Positions 1,896 to 61,472 are shown, counted from the stretch's first letter. The stretch is 64,000 nucleotides of DNA from Candidatus Levyibacteriota bacterium (GCA_963716145.1 OY970292.1:746169-810168), one strand, 5' to 3'. Numbers and translations: made by a program. The notes: generated by a model from the sequence alone, not told the origin.

Positions 1896-2071
1896 ACAGC
1901 AATAATAGCAAATTAAAGTAATTTGTAAAGAGCTTTTATTTGGCTCCGCCTAATGGACGAAGTCAGAACCTACTATGTTAATATGTAGTTATTTGAATTA
2001 AGCTTGCAATGAATTCTTGCTTATATTGATAAGTGAGTTTAAATAATAGTATAGTATAGTATAGTATATAT

Positions 2072-2461
2072 ATGGCTAATGATCCCAAAAAAAATGAGTC
2101 GTTTTTCAAACATCTTTCCAAGCATCCAATAGATACATTTTTTGAGATATTTGTTTTTTTAGCCTTTACTCCCCTTTATACAAAAGTTACTCCCTGGATT
2201 TCAATTCCCTTAGCATTTATACAAGATATTGTTATCTTGGTCATTATGCTATTACTATTTAATGCAGATTCGGTGCACACTGGGGTTCGTATAAGCTTAT
2301 CAGCAGGTGGAATTTTGGGAGCAATACTAGCAATCGGTATTATTTCTCAATTAATAGAATTTGTTTATTCTAATCTAACTATTTGTATAGTAGGCTTATT
2401 GGTATTTTATATCTATGTTTTTGCAACAAACAAAAGACCTCGATTTGAATGGATTGATTAA
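2072..2461 (+). CDS. hypothetical integral membrane protein (AT-rich island cargo)
   Basis: ORF track; about 33% GC; hydrophobic helices; preceded by (tatag)x4 tandem repeat at 2049-2070. Confidence 0.4.
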   Translation: MANDPKKNESFFKHLSKHPIDTFFEIFVFLAFTPLYTKVTPWISIPLAFIQDIVILVIMLLLFNADSVHTGVRISLSAGGILGAILAIGIISQLIEFVYSNLTICIVGLLVFYIYVFATNKRPRFEWID

Positions 2462-2552
2462 GCATAGTATGTTCCGCCTGATAGACGACTTTTAATCTAT
2501 GTAAAATATTAAATTTATTTTTCAAATAGGTTTAATGTATTTAACATAACTA

Positions 2553-3281
2553 CTATTTATGAATTTCAAAACCATTAACAGTAAGAATTTTATATTTTCT
2601 ATCAAGTGGAACCCGTTTAGAGATTGTTTTGTTTAGTATCTTGCCAACTGTAACATTCTGGAGTTCTCTACGAAAATCATCTAAAAAAGCACTTATTTCG
2701 GTTGTATTTAGCCAATAAGTGTTAATTAATTTAATTAATTCTTTATCGTTTAATTTCATTGTTTTTCCAAAAAACTCTGGAAAGATTTGCTCAGTTAAAT
2801 TCATATGCTTATCATTTACCCTTGTTCTAAATTCATTTAGGAAGATTCCACGCATTTTTTTTAAAGAATCAAATATAATTTCATGATTTTCGTATGACTG
2901 CACAAAATTTACATATGCGGTTTGTAGATCTGAATACCTGTCCGAAACCTCATTCCATTTATCTAATCTGTGCTTTGTTTGATTATTCCCGTTTACCAAT
3001 GGATTGTTTTGGCTAATTATAAAATAAATCAACCATTGAATAGTTGTACTATAGTTTGAAAACGCTGTTGAAAATTCAAAAAGTTTATTTTGAAAATCAC
3101 TCCATCCTTCATAGATAATCTTGTGTTCAAATTGCTTAGACATTTGCCTAAAAGCTGTTTTAACGGCAATAAATGCGGCAATTAAAGTTACAGATGCACC
3201 AATTAAAACTCCTAGGAGTTGAGCTTCATTAGCATGGAGTGATTTAGTCCACTCGTGTAAACCTAGTATAGCTTCATACAT
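2553..3281 (-). CDS. hypothetical protein with N-terminal TM anchor (AT-rich island cargo)
   Basis: ORF track; about 30% GC; no recognisable motifs. Confidence 0.4.
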   Translation of the reverse strand: MYEAILGLHEWTKSLHANEAQLLGVLIGASVTLIAAFIAVKTAFRQMSKQFEHKIIYEGWSDFQNKLFEFSTAFSNYSTTIQWLIYFIISQNNPLVNGNNQTKHRLDKWNEVSDRYSDLQTAYVNFVQSYENHEIIFDSLKKMRGIFLNEFRTRVNDKHMNLTEQIFPEFFGKTMKLNDKELIKLINTYWLNTTEISAFLDDFRRELQNVTVGKILNKTISKRVPLDRKYKILTVNGFEIHK

Positions 3282-3432
3282 TTGAATGGATTATATCAAA
3301 AGATAAGCCATATTGCTCCCCAAGCCGTTGATTAATATAACTATAGATTTTGATAGCATAACTAACACAATCCAAGACGTACTATATATTGGAGAATTAA
3401 GAAAGAGATGGAAGGAGATTAAGCTTCTTATC

Positions 3433-4239
3433 TCAAGGGGTTAACTGTTTCAATTCATTTTCAATATACTTGATTTGTGCCATAAACGATTCTACATACC
3501 ATAAGGCTTCTCCCTCTTTTGGTTCAGGACTGTTTCCTGCATGGGCAACACCCCAAACATCTCCTCTATAAGCAACAAGATTTTCAATTAGCTTTACTTG
3601 TATTGGGTGTAAATTAATTTTTTTAGACAGCATTTTAAATGCAGATTCAAAAGTATTCTGAGTTGTAGTTTTTTTACAATAATCCTCAAAAACAATGCAC
3701 ATATCCTTTACCACATCCTTAGGTTTTTTAGATCTTGTAATCAAGCCATCCACTAGATCTCTAAAAACTTGCTGCGTCTTACTTGCAAAAGCTAATGTTT
3801 TATCTGTATCTGTTATGGTTTTTGCAGTTTCATCTTCTATTTTTAGATCAACATGTCCATCTGAGCTGAATTCATATACAGATCCTGAGTTGTTAAAAGC
3901 AAGACATATATCTCTAAAGAGTCTTAGTCTCTTAGTGCTATCCAAATCTCGTTTTGCTCTATCATAGTAAATTTCTATAAAATCGAAGATTTGATCATAA
4001 GTTGTTTTAGTTTCATCACGAAAATCCTCGATTCCTATTATATTGCCAAAATGCATTTGTAGATCTTTACTGAATGCTACATTATGTATCCAGTTAGTGT
4101 TGCCTATGCTGAAATTATATTCGTTTCCACTATAAGGATGTCCATAAAGTTGTAGTATTCTATTTCTCAGGCTTTTTGATGCATCACCGTATCCTGAGTA
4201 TTCTTTTTTTAGGCTATTTCGTTTTGAAAAAGTTTGCAT
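3433..4239 (-). CDS. hypothetical protein (AT-rich island cargo), 268 aa
   Basis: ORF track; about 32% GC; sits immediately next to the tRNA-derived repeat block. Confidence 0.4.
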   Translation of the reverse strand: MQTFSKRNSLKKEYSGYGDASKSLRNRILQLYGHPYSGNEYNFSIGNTNWIHNVAFSKDLQMHFGNIIGIEDFRDETKTTYDQIFDFIEIYYDRAKRDLDSTKRLRLFRDICLAFNNSGSVYEFSSDGHVDLKIEDETAKTITDTDKTLAFASKTQQVFRDLVDGLITRSKKPKDVVKDMCIVFEDYCKKTTTQNTFESAFKMLSKKINLHPIQVKLIENLVAYRGDVWGVAHAGNSPEPKEGEALWYVESFMAQIKYIENELKQLTP

Positions 4240-4280
4240 GTATAATTTAAATTCGAAGTAAATCCGAAGAAATCCATAGG

Positions 4281-4461
4281 TGCTCCGCGACTAGGATTTT
4301 CCTTCGGCTTCGCTCAGGATAAACTGTTTAATTTTGGGAAGTTTCGCTCCGCGACTAGGATTTCCGCCAAAGGGCGGATAAACTCCCCTCAGGACCCTGT
4401 CAGCCTACTGGCTGATTGAAGTTAACAGCTTCCTGTCCGCCAGCTGGCGGACTATCGCGAA
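4281..4461 (-). repeat. block of degenerate tRNA-Asn-derived repeats: two tandem copies of the tRNA 3' end (T-stem plus acceptor, 'gctccgcgactaggattt'), each preceded by a different hairpin, plus a 5'-half pseudo-copy (acceptor-TAG-16-nt palindrome-anticodon arm 'ttgaagttaacagcttcctg')
   Basis: direct comparison with the intact tRNA at 4478-4552; the palindrome 'tccgccagctggcgga' replaces the D-arm. Confidence 0.7.
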
Positions 4462-4477
4462 TAATATTCTAAAGATT

Positions 4478-4552
4478 TGGCTCCGCGACTAGGATTCGAA
4501 CCTAGGACCTTGAAGTTAACAGCTTCCTGCTCTACCGCTGAGCTATCGCGGA
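4478..4552 (-). tRNA. tRNA-Asn (anticodon GTT), CCA encoded
   Basis: hand-folded cloverleaf: acceptor TCCGCGA/TCGCGGA, D-arm GCTC-AGCGGTA-GAGC, anticodon arm GGAAG-CTGTTAA-CTTCA, T-arm CTAGG-TTCGAAT-CCTAG, discriminator G then CCA. Confidence 0.85.
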
Positions 4553-4561
4553 GCCAAATCT

Positions 4562-4807
4562 TTACTTTGGAATATATTTTTTTATGAATTCTCTTCCCCG
4601 GTAACTTTTTAATTGTCTTTCTCGGATCAATGCTGATCTGCGATCAACAACTTCTTCTTTATAAATCAGAACCCATTCCCCATCAATCTTTGCCGTAAAA
4701 TGATTTCCTCTTTTTTTATTATGTTCAGTTAGCCTTGATTCTATATTTGCTGTTTGCCCAATGTAAATTTTGTCTTTTAAACCGTTGTGTAAAGCGTATA
4801 CCCACAT
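4562..4807 (-). CDS. GIY-YIG nuclease family protein (YhbQ/UPF0213-like, 81 aa)
   Basis: 'KIYIGQTANIESRLTEHN' GIY-YIG core with conserved Arg and Glu-His; flanked by tRNA-Asn and the tRNA-derived repeats. Confidence 0.8.
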   Translation of the reverse strand: MWVYALHNGLKDKIYIGQTANIESRLTEHNKKRGNHFTAKIDGEWVLIYKEEVVDRRSALIRERQLKSYRGREFIKKYIPK

Positions 4808-4818
4808 TGAATAATTAT

Positions 4819-4856
4819 ACAGCTTCCTGTCCGCCAGCTGGCGGACTATCGCGGAA
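4819..4856 (-). repeat. truncated tRNA-Asn 5'-half pseudo-copy: acceptor TCCGCGA, TAG, palindromic hairpin, anticodon stem up to 'CTGT'. It is a 35-bp near-perfect direct repeat of 4425-4459
   Basis: sequence identity to 4425-4459 and to the 5' half of the real tRNA; it breaks exactly in the anticodon loop, where the GIY-YIG gene begins. Confidence 0.7.
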
Positions 4857-4959
4857 TATTTTTACGGTATCTGGTATTTTATCACGAAGCCTTATACAAA
4901 TCTATATATAAAAATAGAGTTGAAAAACTTACCCGCTTTCTGCTACTCTTATATGTCCT

Positions 4960-6345
4960 ATGCTCCCCAAATCAATTTGTTTTGTAGATCTTGAAACAAC
5001 AGGAACAAGTGCTTCTTATAACCGCGTAATTGAAATTGGAATTCTTAAAACAATTGATGGAAAAATCGTCAAAAAATACAAAACACTTATTAATCCTCAA
5101 ACTCATATTGATCCTTTTATAGAGCAATTGACAGGAATAAGGCCAGCTGATTTGGAGAACGCTCCTTTATTTGAGGATGTTAAAGATGAAATAGCTGAAA
5201 TTTTGGCTGATTCTGTTTTCGTAGCTCACAATGTCAGATTTGATTATGGATTTCTGCGCAATGAATTCAAAAGATGCGGTACAAGACTAAGTCTTAAACA
5301 TTTCTGTACAGTCAAGCTTTCACGCATTCTTTTTCCTGATCTGAAAAGACACAATTTGGACGCAGTAATTGAAAAGTTTGGTATAAAATGTGAGAACCGC
5401 CACCGAGCAATGGACGATGCCAAAGTGCTTTATGAGTTTTATAAAAAATCCCAAAAGCTAGTTGATAGCGAAGTATTTGAACGAGCTGTAAATATAGCGC
5501 TAAAGAGGCCCAGTATTCCTCTTAACATCAGTCAAGACGTCTTGGACAATCTCCCCGAGTCATCCGGTGTTTATGTGTTTTATGGAGAAGGTGATTCTAT
5601 CCTTTACATCGGAAAAAGTATCAATATCCACGACCGTGTTTTGTCGCACTTTTCAAACGACCATGTCTCTTCAACTGATATGAAAATATCAAAAGAAATA
5701 ACCCACATTGAGACAATTGTGACCTCCGGAGAATTGGGAGCATTGCTTCTGGAATCAACGATGATCAAAAAGCATCAGCCGTTTTTCAACCGCCGCCTCC
5801 GAGCGTCACGGAAAATGACAATTCTTATGAAATGTGTTGATCAAAACGGCTACAATTCCACCGAAATCAAAGAACTTGAGGCTATATCTGTTACTGATAT
5901 AGATAACATAATCGGAGTTTTCAAAAATCCCAAGCAGGTAAAAGATTTTCTCTATATTCTGGCTAAGAATTACCGGCTTTGCCCAAAATTGTTAAGACTT
6001 GAGAAAACGAAAAGCTATTGTTTTTATTATCAGCTTAACCAGTGTGATGGCGCCTGTAAAAATGATGAGCTTAACCTGAAATACAATCTGCGCTTTGATG
6101 AAGCTTTTTACAAGCACAAGATAAGGCCATGGAAGTTTGAGGGCCCGATAATAATTAAAGAAAATAACCATGCTAAAGACGGATTTGTGGTGGATAAATG
6201 GTGTCTTCTCGGCAAAATCAATGCTGACACGGGCTTTGAAGATTTATCAAAAGAATATATATTTGATCTTGATACATACAAAATCCTGAGCAGATTCATA
6301 ACAAAACGCGATAAATCCCTGACAATCAATATGCTGAAAAATTAA
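4960..6345 (+). CDS. DnaQ-like DEDDh 3'-5' exonuclease fused to a UvrC/Cho-type GIY-YIG nuclease domain (Cho-like excinuclease or PolIII epsilon-like)
   Basis: Exo I 'FVDLETTG', Exo II 'HNVRFDYGFL', Exo III 'HRAMDDA'; GIY-YIG 'GVYVFYG..ILYIGKS...R..SHF'. Confidence 0.75.
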   Translation: MLPKSICFVDLETTGTSASYNRVIEIGILKTIDGKIVKKYKTLINPQTHIDPFIEQLTGIRPADLENAPLFEDVKDEIAEILADSVFVAHNVRFDYGFLRNEFKRCGTRLSLKHFCTVKLSRILFPDLKRHNLDAVIEKFGIKCENRHRAMDDAKVLYEFYKKSQKLVDSEVFERAVNIALKRPSIPLNISQDVLDNLPESSGVYVFYGEGDSILYIGKSINIHDRVLSHFSNDHVSSTDMKISKEITHIETIVTSGELGALLLESTMIKKHQPFFNRRLRASRKMTILMKCVDQNGYNSTEIKELEAISVTDIDNIIGVFKNPKQVKDFLYILAKNYRLCPKLLRLEKTKSYCFYYQLNQCDGACKNDELNLKYNLRFDEAFYKHKIRPWKFEGPIIIKENNHAKDGFVVDKWCLLGKINADTGFEDLSKEYIFDLDTYKILSRFITKRDKSLTINMLKN

Positions 6346-8120: not shown

Positions 8121-10355
8121 ATGATGGTCAAACGATATAACAAAATAGTAAAAAAAGCAAAAAAGTTTTCCAAAACACGCCGTGTTCTTTTTATCTTTAT
8201 CTGCATCGTGTCAGCGTTGCTGGTAGCTTTTGGCCTGCTATATATTTTCCTTCTACGGGATCTTCCCTCACCTACCAAACTCACGAATACCACCGGCTCT
8301 TACTCAACCCAAATCTACGATAGGCATGGGACATTGCTTTACACTATTTACGCAGACCGCAATCAAAGCTTTATCCCGCTTGAAAAGATTCCAAAAAATC
8401 TCCAGCTCGCCACAATTGCCGTTGAGGATAAAGATTTTTACCGCCATGGAGCAGTGGACTTCCGCGGAATTGCCAGAGCGCTCTATTCAATTGCCGTTCA
8501 TAAACAGCTGCAAGGAGGCTCAACCCTTACCCAGCAATTGGTTAAAACCAGTCTCCTCACGCCTGAGAGGACAGTAACCAGAAAAATAAAAGAGGTGATT
8601 TTGGCATTTGCGACCGAGGCGCTTTACCCTAAAAACAAAATTCTTGAAATGTATTTGAATCAGGTTCCATATGGAGGAACATCGTACGGTGTTGAAGCAG
8701 CTTCTCTTGCATTTTTTGGCAAACCTGTTAAAGACTTAAGTCTTGCTCAGCAGGCATTTTTGGCCGGACTTCCCGAAGCGCCAAGCACTTTCTCCCCTTT
8801 GGGTTCGCATCCTGAGCTTGGAAAAAAACGTCAGGAGGAAATTTTGCAGAAAATGTATGAGCAGAATTACATTACCAAACAAGAAAGAGACAAGGCTTTG
8901 GCAGAAACGCTTCATTTTCAAAAAATCACCAACCCTATAAAAGCTCCGCATTTTGTGTTTTATGTCAAGGATCTATTGGTTAAAAAATATGGCGAAGATG
9001 CAGTAACGCGGGGAGGCTTGAAAGTTCAAACTAGTTTGGATCTTGACACTCAAAAATATGTCGAAGCAACTGTTTCCGCGCAGCTTGAAGATCTTGGATC
9101 ACACAATGTGGGCAACGGAGGAGCAGTTGTTACCAATCCCGCAACAGGGGAAATTCTGGCGATGACAGGCGGGAAAGATTATTTTGGTACTTCTGAACCT
9201 GAGGGATGTATAGTTGGAAAAACCTGCGTATTTGAACCAAATGTAAATGTAACAATCGCCCAGCAGGAACCCGGTTCATCAATAAAACCGATCAATTACG
9301 CGGTAGGACTTATGAAAGGCTACTCGGCAGCAACACCTTTTATTGACGCGCCAATTTGCTTCCCAATTCCAGGTGATAAACCATTTTGTCCGCGCAATTA
9401 TGATGGCCGTTTCCATGGTATTGTCTCGATGAGAACGGCACTTGGAAGTTCTTTTAATATACCGGCAGTTGAAATGTTAAAACTTAATACAGTAGACAGC
9501 ATGATAGAAACCGCACGGACGATGGGATTAAAACTTAATGATCCCAGGGGATATGGGTTATCTCTAACTCTTGGAGGTGGTGGAGTTACGATGCTTGAAA
9601 TGTCAACTGCTTTTGGGGTCTTTGCCAATCAGGGATACCGCGTCGACCTACACCCGATTCTCAAAATTACAGACAGAGACGGAAAAGTGATTGAAAATTA
9701 CAAACCTCCAAGCAGTCCTATTTTTGGCAAGAAAGTAATTCCTTCTGAAGTGGCTTTTATAATTTCAGACATCTTAAGCGATAATAACGCGCGTATTCCG
9801 GCATTTGGTGCGAATTCTCAGCTGAAAATTGACGGCAAACATGTTTCAGTCAAAACAGGAACCACCAATGATTACAAAGATAACTGGACCATTGGATACA
9901 CTCCGTCTTACTTGGTTGCCGTGTGGGTAGGAAATAATGATAATACTCCAATGTCAGGAGTTGTTTCGGGAGTAACCGGCGCGGCACCGATCTGGCATGA
10001 CCTGATGAGCCATCTTCTAGAGAATAAAAAATCCGAAATACCACAAAAGCCGCCAAATGTTTACGCCAAATATGCCTGCCTCACAACAGGAACAGCATCA
10101 ACAAGCGACAATAACAGCAAATGCGCGACACGTTTTGAATACTTTATTAGAGGCGCAGAAACCAAAAATCCAATGAGTGTCAAAAAAGAGAAAGTCTTTG
10201 TTGACAAAACAACCAACGAGCAGGCAAAGCCAGGACAAACAGAAAATGTTGAAGAGCGGGAGATGGATGTGATGATTGATGTGATAGGCAATAAATATTG
10301 CCTGGGCTGCGCTCATCCTGGATCGCCTACCCCGACTCCGGTTATACCGCACTAA
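8121..10355 (+). CDS. mrcA: class A penicillin-binding protein (PBP1A; transglycosylase plus transpeptidase)
   Basis: GT51 motif 'EDKDFYRHGAVD', 'RGGSTLTQQ'; transpeptidase 'SSIKP', 'KTGTTND'; N-terminal TM. Confidence 0.85.
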   Translation: MMVKRYNKIVKKAKKFSKTRRVLFIFICIVSALLVAFGLLYIFLLRDLPSPTKLTNTTGSYSTQIYDRHGTLLYTIYADRNQSFIPLEKIPKNLQLATIAVEDKDFYRHGAVDFRGIARALYSIAVHKQLQGGSTLTQQLVKTSLLTPERTVTRKIKEVILAFATEALYPKNKILEMYLNQVPYGGTSYGVEAASLAFFGKPVKDLSLAQQAFLAGLPEAPSTFSPLGSHPELGKKRQEEILQKMYEQNYITKQERDKALAETLHFQKITNPIKAPHFVFYVKDLLVKKYGEDAVTRGGLKVQTSLDLDTQKYVEATVSAQLEDLGSHNVGNGGAVVTNPATGEILAMTGGKDYFGTSEPEGCIVGKTCVFEPNVNVTIAQQEPGSSIKPINYAVGLMKGYSAATPFIDAPICFPIPGDKPFCPRNYDGRFHGIVSMRTALGSSFNIPAVEMLKLNTVDSMIETARTMGLKLNDPRGYGLSLTLGGGGVTMLEMSTAFGVFANQGYRVDLHPILKITDRDGKVIENYKPPSSPIFGKKVIPSEVAFIISDILSDNNARIPAFGANSQLKIDGKHVSVKTGTTNDYKDNWTIGYTPSYLVAVWVGNNDNTPMSGVVSGVTGAAPIWHDLMSHLLENKKSEIPQKPPNVYAKYACLTTGTASTSDNNSKCATRFEYFIRGAETKNPMSVKKEKVFVDKTTNEQAKPGQTENVEEREMDVMIDVIGNKYCLGCAHPGSPTPTPVIPH

Positions 10356-11251: not shown

Positions 11252-11344
11252 AATAATTAAATTTTCAATTTGAAATTTGAAATGAAATCAAAATTTTTAA
11301 AGTTTTAAACATTAAATAATTAAAAATTCATTGAAAATTGAAAA
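11252..11344. repeat. AT-rich intergenic element, diverged member of the family at 33691-33805 and 49160-49264
   Basis: shares 'aaatttttaaa..ttttaaacatt', 'attcattgaaaattgaaaattaaaaatt' blocks with the other copies; lies immediately upstream of the rpe start codon. Confidence 0.45.
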
Positions 11345-11851
11345 TTAAAAATTGTTTTCTATCTTCTTTATCTTCTCCACTCTTCTCACATGTCTCTCGG
11401 CTGTCGCGTCAGGAGTAGCAAGCCAAGCATCTATCGCCTTCATAACGTCTTCTTCCTTTAGGAACCTAAACCCTAGCGATAGCATGTTGGCATCATTATG
11501 CTCACGAGTTAAACGAAGCATTTCTAACGGATCCGAACTCATTCTTCCTGTTATATCAGCAGCGTGAACCGGGACGGCAGGCGTATAAAATAACGCGCAG
11601 CGTACACCTTTGAATTTATTGGCAACCATCGCCTCCCCTTGTCCTGATCCGCCAAAAATTATCCCGCGTGAATCCGGATCTTTTGAAACTCTTTCAGCTG
11701 CTTTACTTATGAAATCAGGATAATCATCATCTTTGTCATATTCATATGCTCCGCAATCTTCAACTGCGTAGCCTTTCTGAGTGAGGAATTTTTTAATCTT
11801 TTCTTTTAACTCGAGGCCCGTATGATCTGTAGCAAGATAAACTTTCATCAA
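11345..11851 (-). CDS. rpiB: ribose-5-phosphate isomerase B
   Basis: 'MKVYLATDHTGLELK', 'GIIFGGSGQGEAMVANK' RpiB/LacAB signature. Confidence 0.85.
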   Translation of the reverse strand: MMKVYLATDHTGLELKEKIKKFLTQKGYAVEDCGAYEYDKDDDYPDFISKAAERVSKDPDSRGIIFGGSGQGEAMVANKFKGVRCALFYTPAVPVHAADITGRMSSDPLEMLRLTREHNDANMLSLGFRFLKEEDVMKAIDAWLATPDATAERHVRRVEKIKKIENNF

Positions 11852-12516: not shown

Positions 12517-12565
12517 ATTTTGTTTGATTTGAAAACCCTATTGTCAAAAATGCTATAATGGCATT

Positions 12566-18858: not shown

Positions 18859-19554
18859 TTATTGTCCGTGGGCGAGGATCAGGCCATAAACCTTTTCTAC
18901 TCCCCCTTTTTTCAGCACTTTCGCGGCTTCTTTCAGAGTCGCGCCTGATGTAACAACATCATCAACCAGAAAAACCTGCCCATAATTCCTAATTTCTGAT
19001 TCATAATTCCTAATCCTAAAAGCCCCTTTGATATTCTCCTCCCTCTCTTCTTTCTTAAGACCCACTTGCGTTTTGGTATCCCTGATTCTTTCAAGACAAT
19101 CCAACACCTGGATATTTAATCTTTTACCCAGGCCTTTTGCCAGAATTTGCGATTGATTGTATCCACGCTTTCGCATTTTAGATTTGTACAGTGGGATTGG
19201 AATTAAAACCGACTCACTGACCAGTACTTTATGTAGCGCTTCTTTCTGAATAATTCCTTCATAAAATAAATCATCTAAAACAGTCTTCAAATCCGTAAGA
19301 TTTGGATTGTATTTGAATTTATAGACAAGTTTTTTAACTACGCCCTTGTAAACTAAACTTGAGAAAACTCCATCGGGTGTATATTTGCCGCGGCAGACAG
19401 GATGAGTCAATCCTCCGATTGATGCTCTCTGGCAGACTATACAAACGCCACTATCATGAAATGCGATATAGGAAAAACAATTGGTACAAATATATGAGCC
19501 TATTTTGCCGCAATTTACACAGCGCTTGGGAAAAATAAAGTCAAGGATAGACAC
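18859..19554 (-). CDS. comF: ComF-family protein (ComFC-like phosphoribosyltransferase)
   Basis: N-terminal Cys4 zinc ribbon 'CVNCG...CTNC', C-terminal PRTase motif 'VFLVDDVVTSGATL'. Confidence 0.75.
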   Translation of the reverse strand: MSILDFIFPKRCVNCGKIGSYICTNCFSYIAFHDSGVCIVCQRASIGGLTHPVCRGKYTPDGVFSSLVYKGVVKKLVYKFKYNPNLTDLKTVLDDLFYEGIIQKEALHKVLVSESVLIPIPLYKSKMRKRGYNQSQILAKGLGKRLNIQVLDCLERIRDTKTQVGLKKEEREENIKGAFRIRNYESEIRNYGQVFLVDDVVTSGATLKEAAKVLKKGGVEKVYGLILAHGQ

Positions 19555-19585
19555 ATAAAAAGTGTAGCAGAAAGAGGCTAAGGAA

Positions 19586-19594
19586 TGGTATAAT
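19586..19594 (+). promoter_or_regulatory. extended -10 element (TGgTATAAT), 8 nt upstream of tRNA-Ser
   Basis: sequence 'tggtataat' ending 8 nt before the mature tRNA 5' end. Confidence 0.5.
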
Positions 19595-20293: not shown

Positions 20294-20378
20294 GGAGGAG
20301 TCGCATAGTGGTCTAGTGCAGCGGTTTACTAAACCGCCATACCGCAAGGTATCGGGAGTCCGAATCTCCCCTCCTCCG
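20294..20378 (+). tRNA. class II tRNA, tRNA-Ser(GCU) paralog with anticodon loop TTACTAA (apparent anticodon ACU, A34) and T-loop TCCGAAT (C55); possibly a pseudo- or atypical tRNA
   Basis: hand fold: acceptor GGAGGAG/CTCCTCC, D-arm GCAT-AGTGGTCTA-GTGC, anticodon stem GCGGT/ACCGC, variable-arm hairpin ATACC-GCAA-GGTAT, T-stem GGGAG/CTCCC; the anticodon loop differs from the upstream tRNA-Ser by a single G-to-A change at position 34. Confidence 0.6.
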
Positions 20379-20418
20379 CTCTTATATTAATAATCCTCTT
20401 TCTGCTACACTAATTAAA

Positions 20419-22024: not shown

Positions 22025-22095
22025 ATAATTACCCAGATAATATCATATTTTTTGAAAAAATTGCAACAGGTAATTTTTTGTACTAAAATAGTTTT

Positions 22096-29165: not shown

Positions 29166-29237
29166 CTTATAACCTATGACTAATAACATCGCTTTTGTTA
29201 TCAGTTATATGTTATTCGTTATCTGTTCGAAAAATTT

Positions 29238-32306: not shown

Positions 32307-33683
32307 TTATTCAACTAAGCTGCATGCGATTTTAATTCCCTCTGAATATGTTGGATATGCATGGATCATTTCTGAGAGCTCTTTGGCTGTGACATCACAC
32401 TTTATAGCTAAGGCGATTTCATGAATCAGCTCCCCTGCCCGGGGCGCTACAATCGAACCGCCGATTATAACACCGCTTTTATCGGTAATTACTTTCACAA
32501 ATCCGTCAAAATCATTGGCGGTATTGGCCCGCCCCAGAATACCGATTGCCATGATGCCTTTTTTAATCTTGATGCCCTTTTCGATTGCTTCTTTTTCTGA
32601 AATTCCAACTGAGGCTACTTCAGGAGTTATAAAAACACAACGCGGCACGACCGTATAATCTACCCGCTTTTTCTTTTTGGAGAAGGCATTGTGAGCTGCA
32701 ATATAGCTTTGGTAATTACCGCTGTGAGTGAAAAGATAAGGACCCACAACATCTCCTGCCGCAAAAACATGAGGATTTGTTGTCTGAAGTTCTCTAGTTA
32801 CTTTTAACTGCCTCTTTTCTATTTTGATATCGGCTTTCTCAGGAGCGAAATTAAGGAGCAGCACCTTACCCGTCGCGATCAAAATTTCATCAAACTCGCC
32901 AAAATACTGATTCTCCCCTTTTTGGAAATGAACTACTTTTTTATCATGCTTTTTTTCAACTTTTATTACACCTGTTTCGGTAAGAACCGTAATACCCTTA
33001 TTTTCGAATAATGCTTTAACCAAATCGCTTACTTCCGCGTCTTCTTTGCTTAGCAGTTTCTCAGACCTATTCACAATAGTTACTTTTGTGCCAAAACTTG
33101 CGAAAATCTGAGCAAATTCGCAGCCAATTGCTCCTCCTCCAAAAATCAAAAGCGATGCAGGCAGCTTCTCAAGATCCACTGCTTCTTTATAGGTAATATA
33201 CCCCACGTCTGGCAATCCTGTTATAGGCGGAATAAAAGTCTCTGAACCTGTGGCAATAATAAATTTGGAGGCTGAGTATATCTTGCCCCCTGCTTCAACC
33301 TCATGGGACGAAACAAAAGCTGCTTTATGCCGTATTACCTCAATACCGTCTTTGTGGAATGCGGCTGCCCCATGTGACGCACCGGTTCTTGAGACAACCA
33401 GATCCTTCCATTTTTTAACCAAATGGTGATTTACCGGTACATGAGTTGCCTCAATACCGTACATTTTTGCTGATTTTACTGTTTCTAGAACATGACCCGC
33501 GTGAAGAAGAGCTTTGGTGGGAACGCAGGCAAAATTAGGGCACTCACCGCCTATTGCCCCTGCTTCAAAAAGCGCGACTGTTTTCCCCAGCTCCCGTGCC
33601 GTATGCGCGGCTACAGATCCCCCAGCGCCTGAGCCTATGATGATAAGGTCATAATCATATTTTTTCTTCTTAAAGGGCAGCAT
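32307..33683 (-). CDS. class I pyridine nucleotide-disulfide oxidoreductase, dihydrolipoyl dehydrogenase (Lpd) family
   Basis: FAD 'IIIGSGAGGSVAA', redox-active 'GGECPNFACVPTK', NAD 'LLIFGGGAIGCEFA', C-terminal dimerisation 'HAYPTYSE'. Confidence 0.8.
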   Translation of the reverse strand: MLPFKKKKYDYDLIIIGSGAGGSVAAHTARELGKTVALFEAGAIGGECPNFACVPTKALLHAGHVLETVKSAKMYGIEATHVPVNHHLVKKWKDLVVSRTGASHGAAAFHKDGIEVIRHKAAFVSSHEVEAGGKIYSASKFIIATGSETFIPPITGLPDVGYITYKEAVDLEKLPASLLIFGGGAIGCEFAQIFASFGTKVTIVNRSEKLLSKEDAEVSDLVKALFENKGITVLTETGVIKVEKKHDKKVVHFQKGENQYFGEFDEILIATGKVLLLNFAPEKADIKIEKRQLKVTRELQTTNPHVFAAGDVVGPYLFTHSGNYQSYIAAHNAFSKKKKRVDYTVVPRCVFITPEVASVGISEKEAIEKGIKIKKGIMAIGILGRANTANDFDGFVKVITDKSGVIIGGSIVAPRAGELIHEIALAIKCDVTAKELSEMIHAYPTYSEGIKIACSLVE

Positions 33684-33690
33684 AAAATTA

Positions 33691-33805
33691 GTATATCAGA
33701 ATTTTCAATTTTTAATTATCAATTTTCATTGAATTTTAAATGACGAAATTTTTAAACATTGAAACATTGTAGTTTGATTGAAAATTTTAAATTGTAAATT
33801 AAAAA
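33691..33805. repeat. AT-rich ~100-bp intergenic element, copy A (about 80% identical to 49160-49264)
   Basis: shared blocks 'tcaatttttaatt', 'tcaattttcattgaatttt', 'cattgta.tttgattgaaaatt'; directly upstream of the lpd start codon and contains TGATATACT 7 nt before the ATG. Confidence 0.6.
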
Positions 33806-33806
33806 T

Positions 33807-34076
33807 TTAGGAGATATCCCTGTGAGTATCGTACATATAAGCAACGTCTTTATTATATTTTTTCAAACTCTCCGTAACGTGCTTATGTATCGAATGGGCT
33901 GATACTTCATGCGCGTCTTTAAACCCCTCTGTTACTTCGTGTGCTACCATATTGGAAATTAGCTCTGATTCCTCATCAGACATCCGAAGCGTCATACACG
34001 CGGCAAATACACTGGCATAGACTTTCCGCTCGTCGTACCGCTCCTTGTGCCCTTTTCTTTTGACTATGTGTTCCAT
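33807..34076 (-). CDS. stand-alone ATP-cone domain protein (89 aa)
   Basis: 'IVKRKGHKERYDERKVYASVFAAC' ATP-cone N-terminal pattern; no zinc ribbon or RNR domain attached. Confidence 0.55.
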   Translation of the reverse strand: MEHIVKRKGHKERYDERKVYASVFAACMTLRMSDEESELISNMVAHEVTEGFKDAHEVSAHSIHKHVTESLKKYNKDVAYMYDTHRDIS

Positions 34077-34146
34077 ACTTTGATTATAGCTAATGGCGTA
34101 TAGCTTATCGCTTATAGAATTTCCATATGCAATTTGCCATAAGCTA

Positions 34147-34851
34147 TTAGCCGAAATTTATCGTCCCATTGGCGATTAAGATCAAAAGCCAGCCAAGCGC
34201 AATAAGCATATAACCGATTGCAAACCTCATATATCCTTTGTTGCTCTGTTTCCATTTCTTAATTTTATCTACTTTCATTCCACCTGCCACTAGCAACAAA
34301 ATAACGACTAAAGGCAAGACGAAAACAACATTGTAGAGAATTAAGAGCATGAATGCTTGAAAATTAAAGTTGAGTGACAGGAGTGTAATTATTGCAAGAT
34401 ACGGAGCTCCCGTACATGGAAGTTCAACTGCTGCTATAAAACAGCCAAGAAGAATCACGCCGGTTGTGGTTACATTTTTTGAGTAGTCATGAATTTTTTG
34501 GGCAAAATAAGGCGGGATTTGGAGTGAAAAACCCTGCCCGTACCAGAAAAAGTCTTTTATTTCCAAAAGCCCGGCAAGAACTACAAAGAAGCCTACGATC
34601 AAAGCCAAATATTCGGCTACAAAAAGTGGGACACTTTGCAGGAAGTAGATCAAGCCAAGTCCCGCGAGAAGATAGGTGAAAAAAATTGCCCCTATATAGA
34701 GTCCCCCAAGGTACAAAAGCTTGCCGACCGATCCTTTACCTCCGAGGACAACAGATACCATTAAAATCAAAACGCCGATCGCGCAGGGATTTATAGAATC
34801 AATTGCAGCTGATATCAGAACAACCGATAACGTTGGCAGGTCAATATTCAT
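34147..34851 (-). CDS. ccdA: CcdA/DsbD-family transmembrane thiol-disulfide electron transporter
   Basis: 6 TM helices, Cys in TM1 'INPCAIGVL' and TM4 'VELPCTGAPYL'. Confidence 0.7.
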   Translation of the reverse strand: MNIDLPTLSVVLISAAIDSINPCAIGVLILMVSVVLGGKGSVGKLLYLGGLYIGAIFFTYLLAGLGLIYFLQSVPLFVAEYLALIVGFFVVLAGLLEIKDFFWYGQGFSLQIPPYFAQKIHDYSKNVTTTGVILLGCFIAAVELPCTGAPYLAIITLLSLNFNFQAFMLLILYNVVFVLPLVVILLLVAGGMKVDKIKKWKQSNKGYMRFAIGYMLIALGWLLILIANGTINFG

Positions 34852-34937
34852 AATTTCAAATTTCTAATTTCCAATTTCAAATCAACAAATACCATTTGAG
34901 ATTTGATATTTGTAATTGGTATTTATTGGAAATTACC

Positions 34938-49159: not shown

Positions 49160-49264
49160 CTCAATTTTTAATTTTCAGTTCTCAATTTTCATTGAATTTT
49201 CAATGTTTAAAAATTGTTTCATTGTAATTTGATTGAAAATTGTAAATTTTAAATTGAAAATTTG
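49160..49264. repeat. AT-rich ~100-bp intergenic element, copy B (homolog of 33691-33805), between ruvA stop and ruvB start
   Basis: 15-mer 'ttttcattgaatttt' and further blocks shared with copy A; hand alignment about 80% identity. Confidence 0.6.
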
Positions 49265-50795: not shown

Positions 50796-51287
50796 TCATG
50801 AAAATGGAGCGCTTTTTAGTTTATATGAAAATGCGTGGGTTATCGCGATTGCCAGGGCGTCTGTGGTGTCATCGAGTTTAGGGATACTATCCAATTTGAG
50901 AAGTGTTTTTACCATCTGGGCAACTTGTCTCTTTTCAGCTCTACCATATCCTGTAACTGCAATTTTCACCTGAAGCGGAGTATAAACGGCAAGAGGAAGC
51001 TTTTTCTTGGCAACTGCAAGCATGATAACTCCCCTTGCCTGGCCTACTACGAAGGCTGTTTTGGAATTGGTGTTAAAAAATAAATCTTCAATCCCGACCG
51101 CATCAGGTTGATATTCCTCAATCAATTTAACTATCTCTTCATAGAGCTGATTGAGTCTCTCTCCCATTTCTGTTTTGGCATCAGTCTCTATACACCCGTA
51201 ACTTTGAACTTTGAACTTTGAACTTTGAACTTCCACGACTCCCCACCCTGTTCTTCCAATTCCAGGATCAATTCCCAATATACGCAT
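50796..51287 (-). CDS. ruvC: crossover junction endodeoxyribonuclease RuvC
   Basis: 'MRILGIDPGIGRTGWGVVE', 'DAVGIEDLFF', 'DALAIAITHA' catalytic residues. Confidence 0.9.
   Translation of the reverse strand: MRILGIDPGIGRTGWGVVEVQSSKFKVQSYGCIETDAKTEMGERLNQLYEEIVKLIEEYQPDAVGIEDLFFNTNSKTAFVVGQARGVIMLAVAKKKLPLAVYTPLQVKIAVTGYGRAEKRQVAQMVKTLLKLDSIPKLDDTTDALAIAITHAFSYKLKSAPFS
51200..51233. repeat. heptanucleotide tandem repeat (aactttg)x4 plus a partial copy, inside the ruvC coding sequence
   Basis: direct reading of the sequence; encodes 'SSKFKVQS' in RuvC. Confidence 0.8.
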
Positions 51288-61416: not shown

Positions 61417-61472
61417 TATTTAACATTTGGCCTTTCGCGTTAACTTTCGGCTTTTCTGCTATAATTGATTTT

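Follow-up and report, generated by a model that had tools for sequence, protein, structure and literature searches.

Palindromes of tandem heptamers at gene junctions of a Levyibacteriota genome: probable miniature derivatives of an element of the rRNA intervening sequence type

The DNA analysed here, referred to as the window, is a stretch of 64,000 nt from Candidatus Levyibacteriota bacterium (GCA_963716145.1, OY970292.1:746169-810168). Three of its gene junctions, ahead of an lpd-like gene, of ruvB and of rpe, are occupied by short elements, labelled A, B and C, which belong to one homologous family of imperfect palindromes assembled from tandem heptamers. Copies of the family are present at some orthologous junctions and absent from others, have longer relatives bearing an open reading frame (ORF) between their arms, and are also found within rRNA genes. 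A, B and C are probably derivatives, about 100 nt long, ORF-less and resembling miniature inverted-repeat transposable elements (MITEs), of a selfish element of the rRNA intervening sequence (IVS) type, distributed over many lineages of Patescibacteria. The element is most likely neutral or parasitic, rather than a regulatory device of the host.

Elements A, B and C and their heptamer arrays

The GC content of the window is mostly 37-44%, and that of the elements 11-21%; very AT-rich gaps of 93-123 nt are found between co-directional minus-strand genes. The genes flanking the three elements are supported by Pfam matches as an ATP-cone gene and the lpd-like gene for A, ruvA and ruvB for B, and rpiB and rpe for C. 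An initial annotation, produced from the sequence of the window alone, had described these gaps as filled by related elements, equally oriented and ending close to the ATG, with a degenerate copy (D) before a ccdA-like gene, whose sole Pfam match (PF11139, SfLAP) falls under the cut-off. As proposed, A, B and C span the interval from stop to start codon between co-directional minus-strand genes, and end 14-16 nt (A and B) or 8 nt (C) away from the ATG. The first bases of element A, which has the polarity of its flanking genes, are shared with the stop codon of the ATP-cone gene, while the last two codons and the stop of rpiB (..AAT TTT TAA) come from element C.

The proposed homology between A and B is confirmed by a local alignment score of 114, compared with 25 +/- 5 for dinucleotide shuffles (z=18), and identities range from 77 to 85% for the repeat families D1-D3. 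C is, as suggested, a more diverged relative (z=6-7 against A and B, by local alignment and dinucleotide-preserving shuffles), and is recognized by the family profile, E values for the three elements spanning 1e-13 to 1e-19 overall (single values in Table 1). The right array contains a 28-nt motif, ATTCAWTRAAAATTGANAAYTRAAAATT, of which each element has one occurrence, minus-strand in A and B but plus-strand in C; no further site in the window matches with up to three mismatches, and 100 shuffles of the window gave none. The claim of a common orientation was thus mistaken for C, in agreement with profile scores of 46.9 bits on the plus and 23.0 bits on the minus strand.

Two features had been overlooked in the initial annotation: A, B, C and D are each an imperfect palindrome, and their arms are made of tandem 7-nt units, as revealed by Tandem Repeats Finder (TRF; period 7) and by lag-7 autocorrelation (z=4.0-4.6 for the elements and 6.4 for D). 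The general plan is a left array of four to five AATTTnC units, a short loop and a right array of the form CATTGAAA-ATTCAWT-(GAAAATT)x4. An alignment of 62 full-length copies (A2), from which the family profile was also built, gave the consensus AATTTTC AATTTnC AATTTnC AATTTTC AATCAAT..CAATG for the left part, followed by a variable loop and by TTTGAAAATTA..CATTGAAA ATTCAWT GAAAATT GAnAAyT GAAAATT GAAAATT for the right part.

Element D is strongly self-inverse (z=8.3), and its similarity to A, B and C does not exceed z=3.8, so that the pairwise relationship suggested for it was not confirmed; a marginal profile match (nhmmer, E=0.0025, model positions 3-48, filters off) is limited to the left half, which resembles the left array of the family. 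By these comparisons D may at best be a distant relative. Two further junctions, between the ccdA-like and ATP-cone genes and between a HAD hydrolase and a GlmS-like gene, carry palindromes of other heptamers (Table 1); the gene-proximal unit of the former makes a AGCTATAAT -10 box, 6 nt before the ATP-cone ATG. D and these two palindromes have the architecture in common with the family, their membership in it not being demonstrable.

Table 1. Elements, arrays and related features in the window
Feature	Position	Strand	Description
Element A	33698-33808	-	ORF-less; junction of ATP-cone gene and lpd-like gene; family profile E=4.5e-18, model positions 4-114
Element A, right array	33698-33741		conserved
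Element A, 28-nt motif	33707-33734	-	within right array
Element A, left array	~33766-33808		
Element A, heptamer tracts	33700-33728, 33777-33807		TRF, period 7
Element B	49161-49262	-	ORF-less; ruvA/ruvB junction; polarity of the genes; family profile E=6.7e-17
Element B, 28-nt motif	49170-49197	-	
Element B, arms	49163-49205, 49220-49262		43 nt each, 77% complementary
Element C	11258-11355	+	ORF-less; rpiB/rpe junction; inverted relative to the genes, A and B; family profile E 1e-13 to 2e-12
Element C, 28-nt motif	11326-11353	+	
Element D	34850-34937	+	junction of 241-aa gene and ccdA-like gene; heptamer palindrome, TTCAAAT x5
Junction palindrome	34077-34146		ccdA-like/ATP-cone gap; TTATAGC x4.9; lag-7 z=5.9
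Junction palindrome	29166-29237		HAD hydrolase/GlmS-like gap, both genes on plus strand; TGTTATC x4.6
Extended -10 box of lpd-like gene, TGATATACT	33690-33698	-	6 nt before ATG (33681-33683); outside the arrays

A relaxed version of the 28-nt motif, with 23 specified bases, was scanned against contigs representing one genome per species; L001 to L127 are the labels of the contigs and loci compared. More than 116 stretches were found among the matches listed, nearly all from Patescibacteria of many classes, including Levyi-, Roizman-, Moran-, Nealson-, Uhr-, Falkow-, Sung-, Wildermuth-, Lipton- and Zambryskibacteria, Paceibacterota and Saccharibacteria, and also from genomes of 50-55% GC. A phage origin was discarded, as none of 2.9 million viral contigs matched. 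A few matched records carry labels other than Patescibacteria, which are doubtful: L032, labelled 'Pacearchaeota archaeon', holds a bacterial hrcA-grpE-dnaK-dnaJ cluster. A RuvB labelled 'Xanthomonadales' is 96% identical to that of the window, which its RuvB homologues assign to the Patescibacteria.

By using the A2 profile, nhmmer identified 152 distinct copies in 1.04 Mb of retrieved DNA from the candidate phyla radiation, 30 of them outside the search pattern. Copies within one genome are up to 96% (L016) and 91% (L042) identical. A, B and C are 71-78% identical to one another, and closer copies are found in other metagenome-assembled genomes (86% in L044, Saccharimonadales; 86% in L034, Moranbacteria; 83% in L031, unclassified), two of which are labelled as other classes. 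These identities suggest recent copying, in support of a selfish element.

Most copies for which both neighbours were called (66 of 72, or 92%) sit between co-directional genes, and both orientations relative to these genes occur, in a ratio of 43:23. In L032 (1679-4474), five heat-shock genes in a row, hrcA, grpE, DUF3467, hsp20 and dnaK, each have a copy in front of them. The idea of a regulon, raised by the five copies in this hrcA-grpE-hsp20-dnaK-dnaJ cluster, was dropped because the 136 ORFs adjacent to copies fall into 133 Pfam families, the downstream genes being functionally unrelated. DNA uptake sequences were also set aside, the density of about 1 per 20 kb being far too low and the element too long, as were integron attC sites, which are likewise imperfect palindromes between co-directional genes, by the reasoning that the flanks are here housekeeping genes in conserved order.

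Insertion polymorphism, cargo gene and copies within rRNA genes

The cleanest empty site is found at the rpiB/rpe junction. The window and L127 have about 100 nt directly 5' of the rpe ATG; in L124 and L126 (Rpe 82% and 76% identical, respectively) the two genes overlap by 8 nt, without an element, the sequence at this site including ..AAAAATGTTTGA.. and ..GAAAAAAATGTTTGAAATA.. in both. With the insertion the C-terminus of RpiB changes from EKNV* to ENNF*, the new stop being provided by the element; a possible 'AT' repeat at this site is trivial in AT-rich DNA. The ruvA-ruvB gap measures 1 nt in L006 and 117 nt in the window and in L001, where an orthologous copy of B, 95% identical, is found. 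At the same junction the B-type element of L003 holds a small GC-rich hairpin within its loop; L002 has another heptamer palindrome, and L004 an entire gene between inverted heptamer arrays. D is absent from L003, where the flanking genes overlap, and so is the 34077-34146 palindrome, the gap there being 3 nt. In the window D parts the ccdA ATG from a Shine-Dalgarno (SD)-like GAAAGGAGG; in L003 GAAAGGAGG precedes that ATG. The elements are thus shown to be insertions, present or absent at orthologous junctions.

Other differences were noted at the same loci. The GC-rich double hairpin in the L003 element loop (9875-9916, GTCCCGATGATAGTTTTCATTCGGGATCCCGACAAGTCGGGA) appears to be a second, unrelated miniature insertion. 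Just downstream of ruvB, a PhdYeFM/ParE toxin-antitoxin pair (L001, 11740-12267) and other genes differ between L001 and the window, which suggests a fast turnover around conserved housekeeping genes.

Four of the adjacent ORFs match PF05635, '23S rRNA intervening sequence protein', and are located inside, not beside, the element: in L059, L097, L122 and L039 the ORF runs from an ATG at the inner border of the left array to a stop codon before the right array. A wider search added L075, which also carries a PF05635/TIGR02436 ORF between family arrays, and, marginally, L024. All tested cargo proteins match TIGR02436, 'four helix bundle protein', and for one of them a related structure has been solved (2rld, an entry of five chains); the S23p of X. 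campestris is a homopentameric toroid (PMC4990558), and PF05635 resembles Avd of diversity-generating retroelements (DGRs) (PMC10053308). The full-length form is about 450-500 bp long, with a PF05635/TIGR02436 gene (S23p or intervening sequence protein, IVP; Avd-like) between inverted arrays of five or six heptamers each.

When all of the ORF but four codons and the stop was deleted in silico, L075, L039, L097 and L059 matched the profile of the miniature copies end to end (E values from 9e-19 to 8e-13). Short copies keep the 'CAATG nnn CAA TTT' which encodes the M-x-Q-F start of the protein, and the loop of element B retains it as ATG-AAA-CAA-TTT. L004 has a gene of this protein family (IVP) between ruvA and ruvB, where it is flanked by inverted heptamer arrays of the CGAAA type; L070, L009 and L099 also have PF05635-type genes flanked by inverted or tandem arrays of short repeats, with other unit sequences. 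Neither a reverse transcriptase nor a template or variable repeat was seen beside the cargo genes whose surroundings were read, and no transposase or RAYT gene (tyrosine transposase associated with repetitive extragenic palindromes, REPs) beside the copies or among the adjacent ORFs, for which the 25 most frequent Pfam families of 136 ORFs were listed. The DNA between paired copies in L042 and L016 is also without a transposase: in L042 it holds what by reading are small membrane-like ORFs, with groES-groEL past the right-hand copy, and in L016 it holds dcd-tmk-dcd.

Family copies interrupt rRNA genes as well. In the 16S gene of L103, an insertion of 165 nt takes the place of 13 nt (model positions 453-466) and includes a family copy (2462-2579) 89% identical to an intergenic copy in L072. 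The 5' part of the 23S gene of L024 has three insertions, two of which, at about model positions 139-143 and 284-288, hold family copies (997-1125 and 703-821). The third, after model position 583, is made of AAAGTTC/AACTTTA heptamers, and the same unit recurs in the ruvA-ruvB palindrome of L002 and the lpd palindrome of L003. Since heptamer-array palindromes are found both between genes and within 16S and 23S genes, they are rRNA intervening sequences too.

Classical IVSs are known since about 1990, and their origin and mode of spread, like the role of the S23p/IVP protein, are still regarded as open (PMC4990558). The 23S IVS of Coxiella is described as a selfish element whose terminal inverted repeats are cleaved by RNase III and whose loop contains an S23p ORF, with tandem heptameric repeats just before the ORF, their number differing between strains; the origin and mobility of IVSs are stated there as unresolved (PMC4990558). 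Compared with this type, A, B and C differ in location, being placed between protein-coding genes, whereas the members in L103 and L024 lie in the apical part of rRNA helices. Complementary termini are shared (77% between the arms of B, and 78% of cells pairing over 62 copies), although the stem is weak and without covariation. A PF05635 ORF occupies the loop in L059, L097, L122, L039, L075 and, marginally, L024, and is missing from the copies of the window.

Two heptamer repeats were also found within coding regions of the window. A perfect AACTTTG repeat (x4.7, 51200-51232) in ruvC encodes ..EVQSSKFKVQS.., where RuvC of L001 reads ..EVQSANLKVQS..; its unit is the one building the IVS-like palindromes of L002, L003 and the L024 23S gene. 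A TAATTCC array (x5.4, 18983-19019) lies inside an ORF (18859-19554) with double zinc ribbon and phosphoribosyltransferase domains.

Origin of the elements and alternative explanations

In the initial annotation, element A was said to carry the box TGATATACT, implying a leaderless or very short-leader transcript, and three explanations were offered for the family: internal promoters with UP-element-like tracts, intrinsically curved DNA, or a MITE-like element. The box is indeed present on the minus strand, 6 nt from the lpd ATG, but not as part of the element: since the orthologous site of L003 has TGATACACT-TTAATT-ATG, with the box at the same distance, beside an unrelated palindrome, the box belongs to lpd, is ancestral and lies outside the repeat. 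The leaderless interpretation is correct for lpd, but is not specific to the element. Only 4 of 70 window genes have an SD-like motif, and by eye many starts, even of genes abutting their predecessor, show an extended -10 box (TGnTAnnnT) whose end lies 5-8 nt upstream of the start codon (examples at 12540-12565, 22075-22095 and 61450-61472). Most genes would accordingly have a promoter of their own, within the 3' end of the upstream gene, and the genome looks almost wholly leaderless, with the 'group C' geometry described by GeneMarkS-2 in other bacteria (PMC6028130). Curved DNA was dropped, as autocorrelation of the elements gave a 7-bp periodicity and no signal at 10-11 bp.

That the elements themselves supply -35, UP and -10 sequences for leaderless or short-leader mRNAs, as a lineage-specific internal promoter module, is the main rival to an IVS-type selfish origin, and an unlikely one. 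It would suit a genome of this leaderless type and the fact that in about 75% of the co-oriented copies the start codon is 0-16 nt downstream, mostly without an SD motif. On direct reading, a pure (TTGAAAA)n array sets TTGAAA and GAAAAT exactly 17 nt apart, and this arrangement is retrieved by the scan in B, though on the strand opposite to ruvB; moreover, rpe and ccdA survive the loss of translational coupling caused by insertion. A promoter module should, however, have a fixed orientation and a fixed distance to the start, and the elements have neither, given the 43:23 ratio and a spacing to the ATG that is flat over 0-16 nt. Scans of the elements gave no excess of promoter-like consensus sites over shuffles, a TAnnnT box at the usual distance is missing from B and C, the lpd box is ancestral and outside the element, copies are also found in 16S and 23S genes and around the cargo ORF, and orthologous genes of close relatives manage without any element.

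Selection by the host for a structured RNA within operon transcripts, such as a hairpin for RNase III or other processing, a REP-like mRNA stabiliser, a thermosensor or a terminator, is judged improbable. The predominance of copies between co-directional genes, as for REP elements and enterobacterial repetitive intergenic consensus (ERIC) sequences, the five copies in one heat-shock cluster and the RNase III sensitivity of classical IVSs (PMC4990558) would all fit, and the arms are able to pair, with energies of -14 to -24 kcal/mol. On the gene-sense strand the minimum free energy z-scores are, however, only -1.4 to -1.9 compared with shuffles. Covariation was tested over the 62 copies on an explicit structure of 35 pairs joining the two arrays: 78.1% of the cells pair, compared with 78.6% when partners are shuffled among sequences, and the covariation score falls short of the mean of the shuffles. 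Positions 6-7 of the left heptamers are unpaired in 30-70% of the copies, and no long helix was returned by RNAalifold on the family alignment. A selected hairpin was dropped on these grounds: the symmetry of the arms lies in the sequence, not in a structure. In addition, the scans detected no terminator-like sites in the elements, Rfam 15 at the gathering threshold reported only tmRNA and tRNAs in the window and nothing at the elements, nor did Rfam at E<=1 at the elements of L016 or L042, and the diversity of the downstream genes (133 families among 136 proteins) does not suggest a common function.

The MITE-like element was the closest of the three initial guesses: the copies are dispersed and polymorphic, and have longer ORF-bearing relatives. 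The partner is a PF05635 gene instead of a transposase, and the consistent target-site duplication expected of a MITE was not seen. A classical non-autonomous DNA transposon (a DDE-type MITE) or a REP/RAYT-type element, to which the terminal inverted repeats, the high copy number, the insertion polymorphism and the near identity of some copies within one genome would also correspond, is for these reasons very improbable: the flanking sequences of 119 copies gave no consistent duplication, neither a transposase nor a RAYT gene was found next to copies or among the 25 most frequent Pfam families of the adjacent ORFs, longer relatives with the same ends encode a four-helix-bundle protein, which is the only recurrent cargo, and the arms are heptamer arrays of 40-45 nt, not REP hairpins of 20-40 nt. 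The opposite view, that no family exists and that AT-rich, low-complexity spacers became alike by composition and replication slippage, is refuted and retains practically no probability. It could appeal to the low GC content, to tandem heptamers of the sort which slippage can make, and to other junctions having palindromes of unrelated heptamers; it is contradicted by the z=18 of A and B against dinucleotide shuffles, by the conservation across classes of the non-periodic ATTCAWT, CATTGAAA and CAATG, and by identical 28-mers in many phylum-level lineages, with none in the viral contigs.

The derivation of A, B and C from an IVS-type selfish element would proceed as follows. Loss of the ORF would leave a left array, 'CAATG nnn CAA TTT' and a right array, as in the window. 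Copies would insert either way round wherever a self-complementary insert is tolerated, that is, at the stop-to-start interval of adjacent genes, a few nucleotides long or an overlap, and in the apical loops of rRNA helices. Pairing between the arrays would be weak on transcripts, which RNase III may cleave there as it does in classical IVSs. Insertions between genes may be tolerated because most genes seem to own a -10 box 5-8 nt before the ATG, so that splitting translationally coupled genes is less likely to silence the downstream one; the absence of a clear -10 at the usual distance in B and C limits this suggestion. Finally, the arrays are candidate binding sites of the pentameric cargo protein, which might act in trans on ORF-less copies.

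Several observations weigh against this derivation. No consistent target-site duplication was seen at the copies, no DNA-moving enzyme is associated with them, and no catalytic activity is known for the cargo protein; ORF-bearing copies are only about 6 out of 152. The copies within rRNA genes come from metagenome-assembled genomes, where mis-assembly is possible in principle. The right array is very strongly conserved over deep lineages, which might mean a host function, and the same could be reflected in the 65% of copies running with the flanking genes. Downstream genes are often highly expressed (L7/L12 four times, S7, EF, GroES, ATP synthase and five of one hrcA-dnaK cluster). The covariation test is weakened by the right array being fixed by the search pattern used to collect the copies.

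A bolder and less probable proposal is that the pentameric S23p/IVP recognises the heptamer arrays, each subunit taking one of the five or six heptamers of an arm. Protein and arrays would then constitute a previously unrecognised mobile element, spreading into rRNA helix loops and stop/start junctions across Patescibacteria, possibly via an RNA intermediate and a borrowed reverse transcriptase, such as the one with which Avd works in DGRs. If true, it would explain where rRNA intervening sequences come from and what role S23p plays.

The elements also affect annotation. In L127, rpe (3001-3693) is called at 230 aa with its start inside the element, and ORFs are called into elements at several other loci; this is due to the ATG and TTG triplets of the arrays, located shortly before the true starts, and of these arrays the strand reading AATTTTC is without stop codons. 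Called ORFs are thereby lengthened, leading to wrong start codons in Patescibacteria. In very compact genomes, the elements rewrite C-termini (rpiB) and part translationally coupled genes.

Some features of the window are apart from the family. In the region 4240-4960, a tRNA-Asn (4478-4552, minus strand) has after it a tRNA-like copy bearing additional hairpins; a third, partial copy (..CGCGATAGTCCGCCAGCTGGCGGACAGGAAGCTGT|ATAAT..) precedes the tRNA-Asn and ends in the anticodon loop, leading straight into an 81-aa GIY-YIG gene (4562-4807). The region looks like an insertion of a GIY-YIG endonuclease that duplicated part of the tRNA. An AbiJ-like ORF, below the Pfam cut-off, and low-GC DNA (31% at 2001-4000) adjoin it. 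A tRNA-Ser (20294-20379) with the unusual anticodon ACT is predicted by ARAGORN, is not reported by Rfam at the gathering score, and is flanked by inverted TCTGCTACACT promoter-like boxes (19556-19586 and 20386-20416).

Comparison with known systems

The closest likeness is with rRNA IVSs. In both cases an insert with self-complementary ends is either about 100 nt long and ORF-less or about 450 nt long with a PF05635 ORF in the loop, and is sporadically present among relatives; members of the family lie in helix loops of 16S (L103) and 23S (L024). The tandem heptamers beside the ORF start are also a feature of the Coxiella IVS (PMC4990558), which, however, has a near-perfect 28-bp stem, where the copies described here have whole heptamer arrays that pair poorly. 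The other differences are that the copies of the window, and most copies of the family, are placed between protein-coding genes, and that the family is dispersed, with several copies per genome where more than one was sampled, and in many classes. The cargo protein, in PF05635, resembles Avd (PMC10053308), and its relative 2rld has five chains; unlike Avd, the cargo genes read have no reverse transcriptase, template repeat or variable repeat beside them, and the L004 gene stands alone at a housekeeping junction.

Among intergenic repeats, Correia elements or Neisseria miniature insertion sequences (NEMIS), and the ERIC sequences or intergenic repeat units (IRU) of enterobacteria, are imperfect palindromes of 100-150 bp, located in transcribed gaps in both orientations, in many copies and with insertion polymorphism. 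The present family is similarly palindromic, intergenic, multicopy and polymorphic, and occurs in both orientations; it differs in lacking a TA or other consistent duplication, in having arms of 7-nt repeats, and in encoding a four-helix-bundle protein, not a transposase. No sequence similarity to these elements and no Rfam match was found. The short tandemly repeated repetitive (STRR) sequences of heterocystous cyanobacteria are tandem 7-nt repeats in non-coding gaps, and thus alike by description, the unit sequences being different. STRRs are not known to have an inverted two-array architecture or a cargo gene. An excess of heptamers in bacteria has been mentioned (PMC4692102).

IVSs, S23p and the Coxiella heptamers are therefore already known, and in the literature no description was found of a dispersed Patescibacteria family linking rRNA IVSs with IVP-bearing and ORF-less intergenic copies. 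What appears to be new, from the sequence comparisons reported here, is such a dispersed, multi-lineage family, joining three states: within 16S and 23S genes, with an IVP gene between the arms, and as many ORF-less intergenic copies. The IVS would thereby no longer be a curiosity of rRNA genes but a repeat family, dispersed and recently active, which has a candidate trans-acting protein and, in the 7-nt arrays, a candidate binding site.

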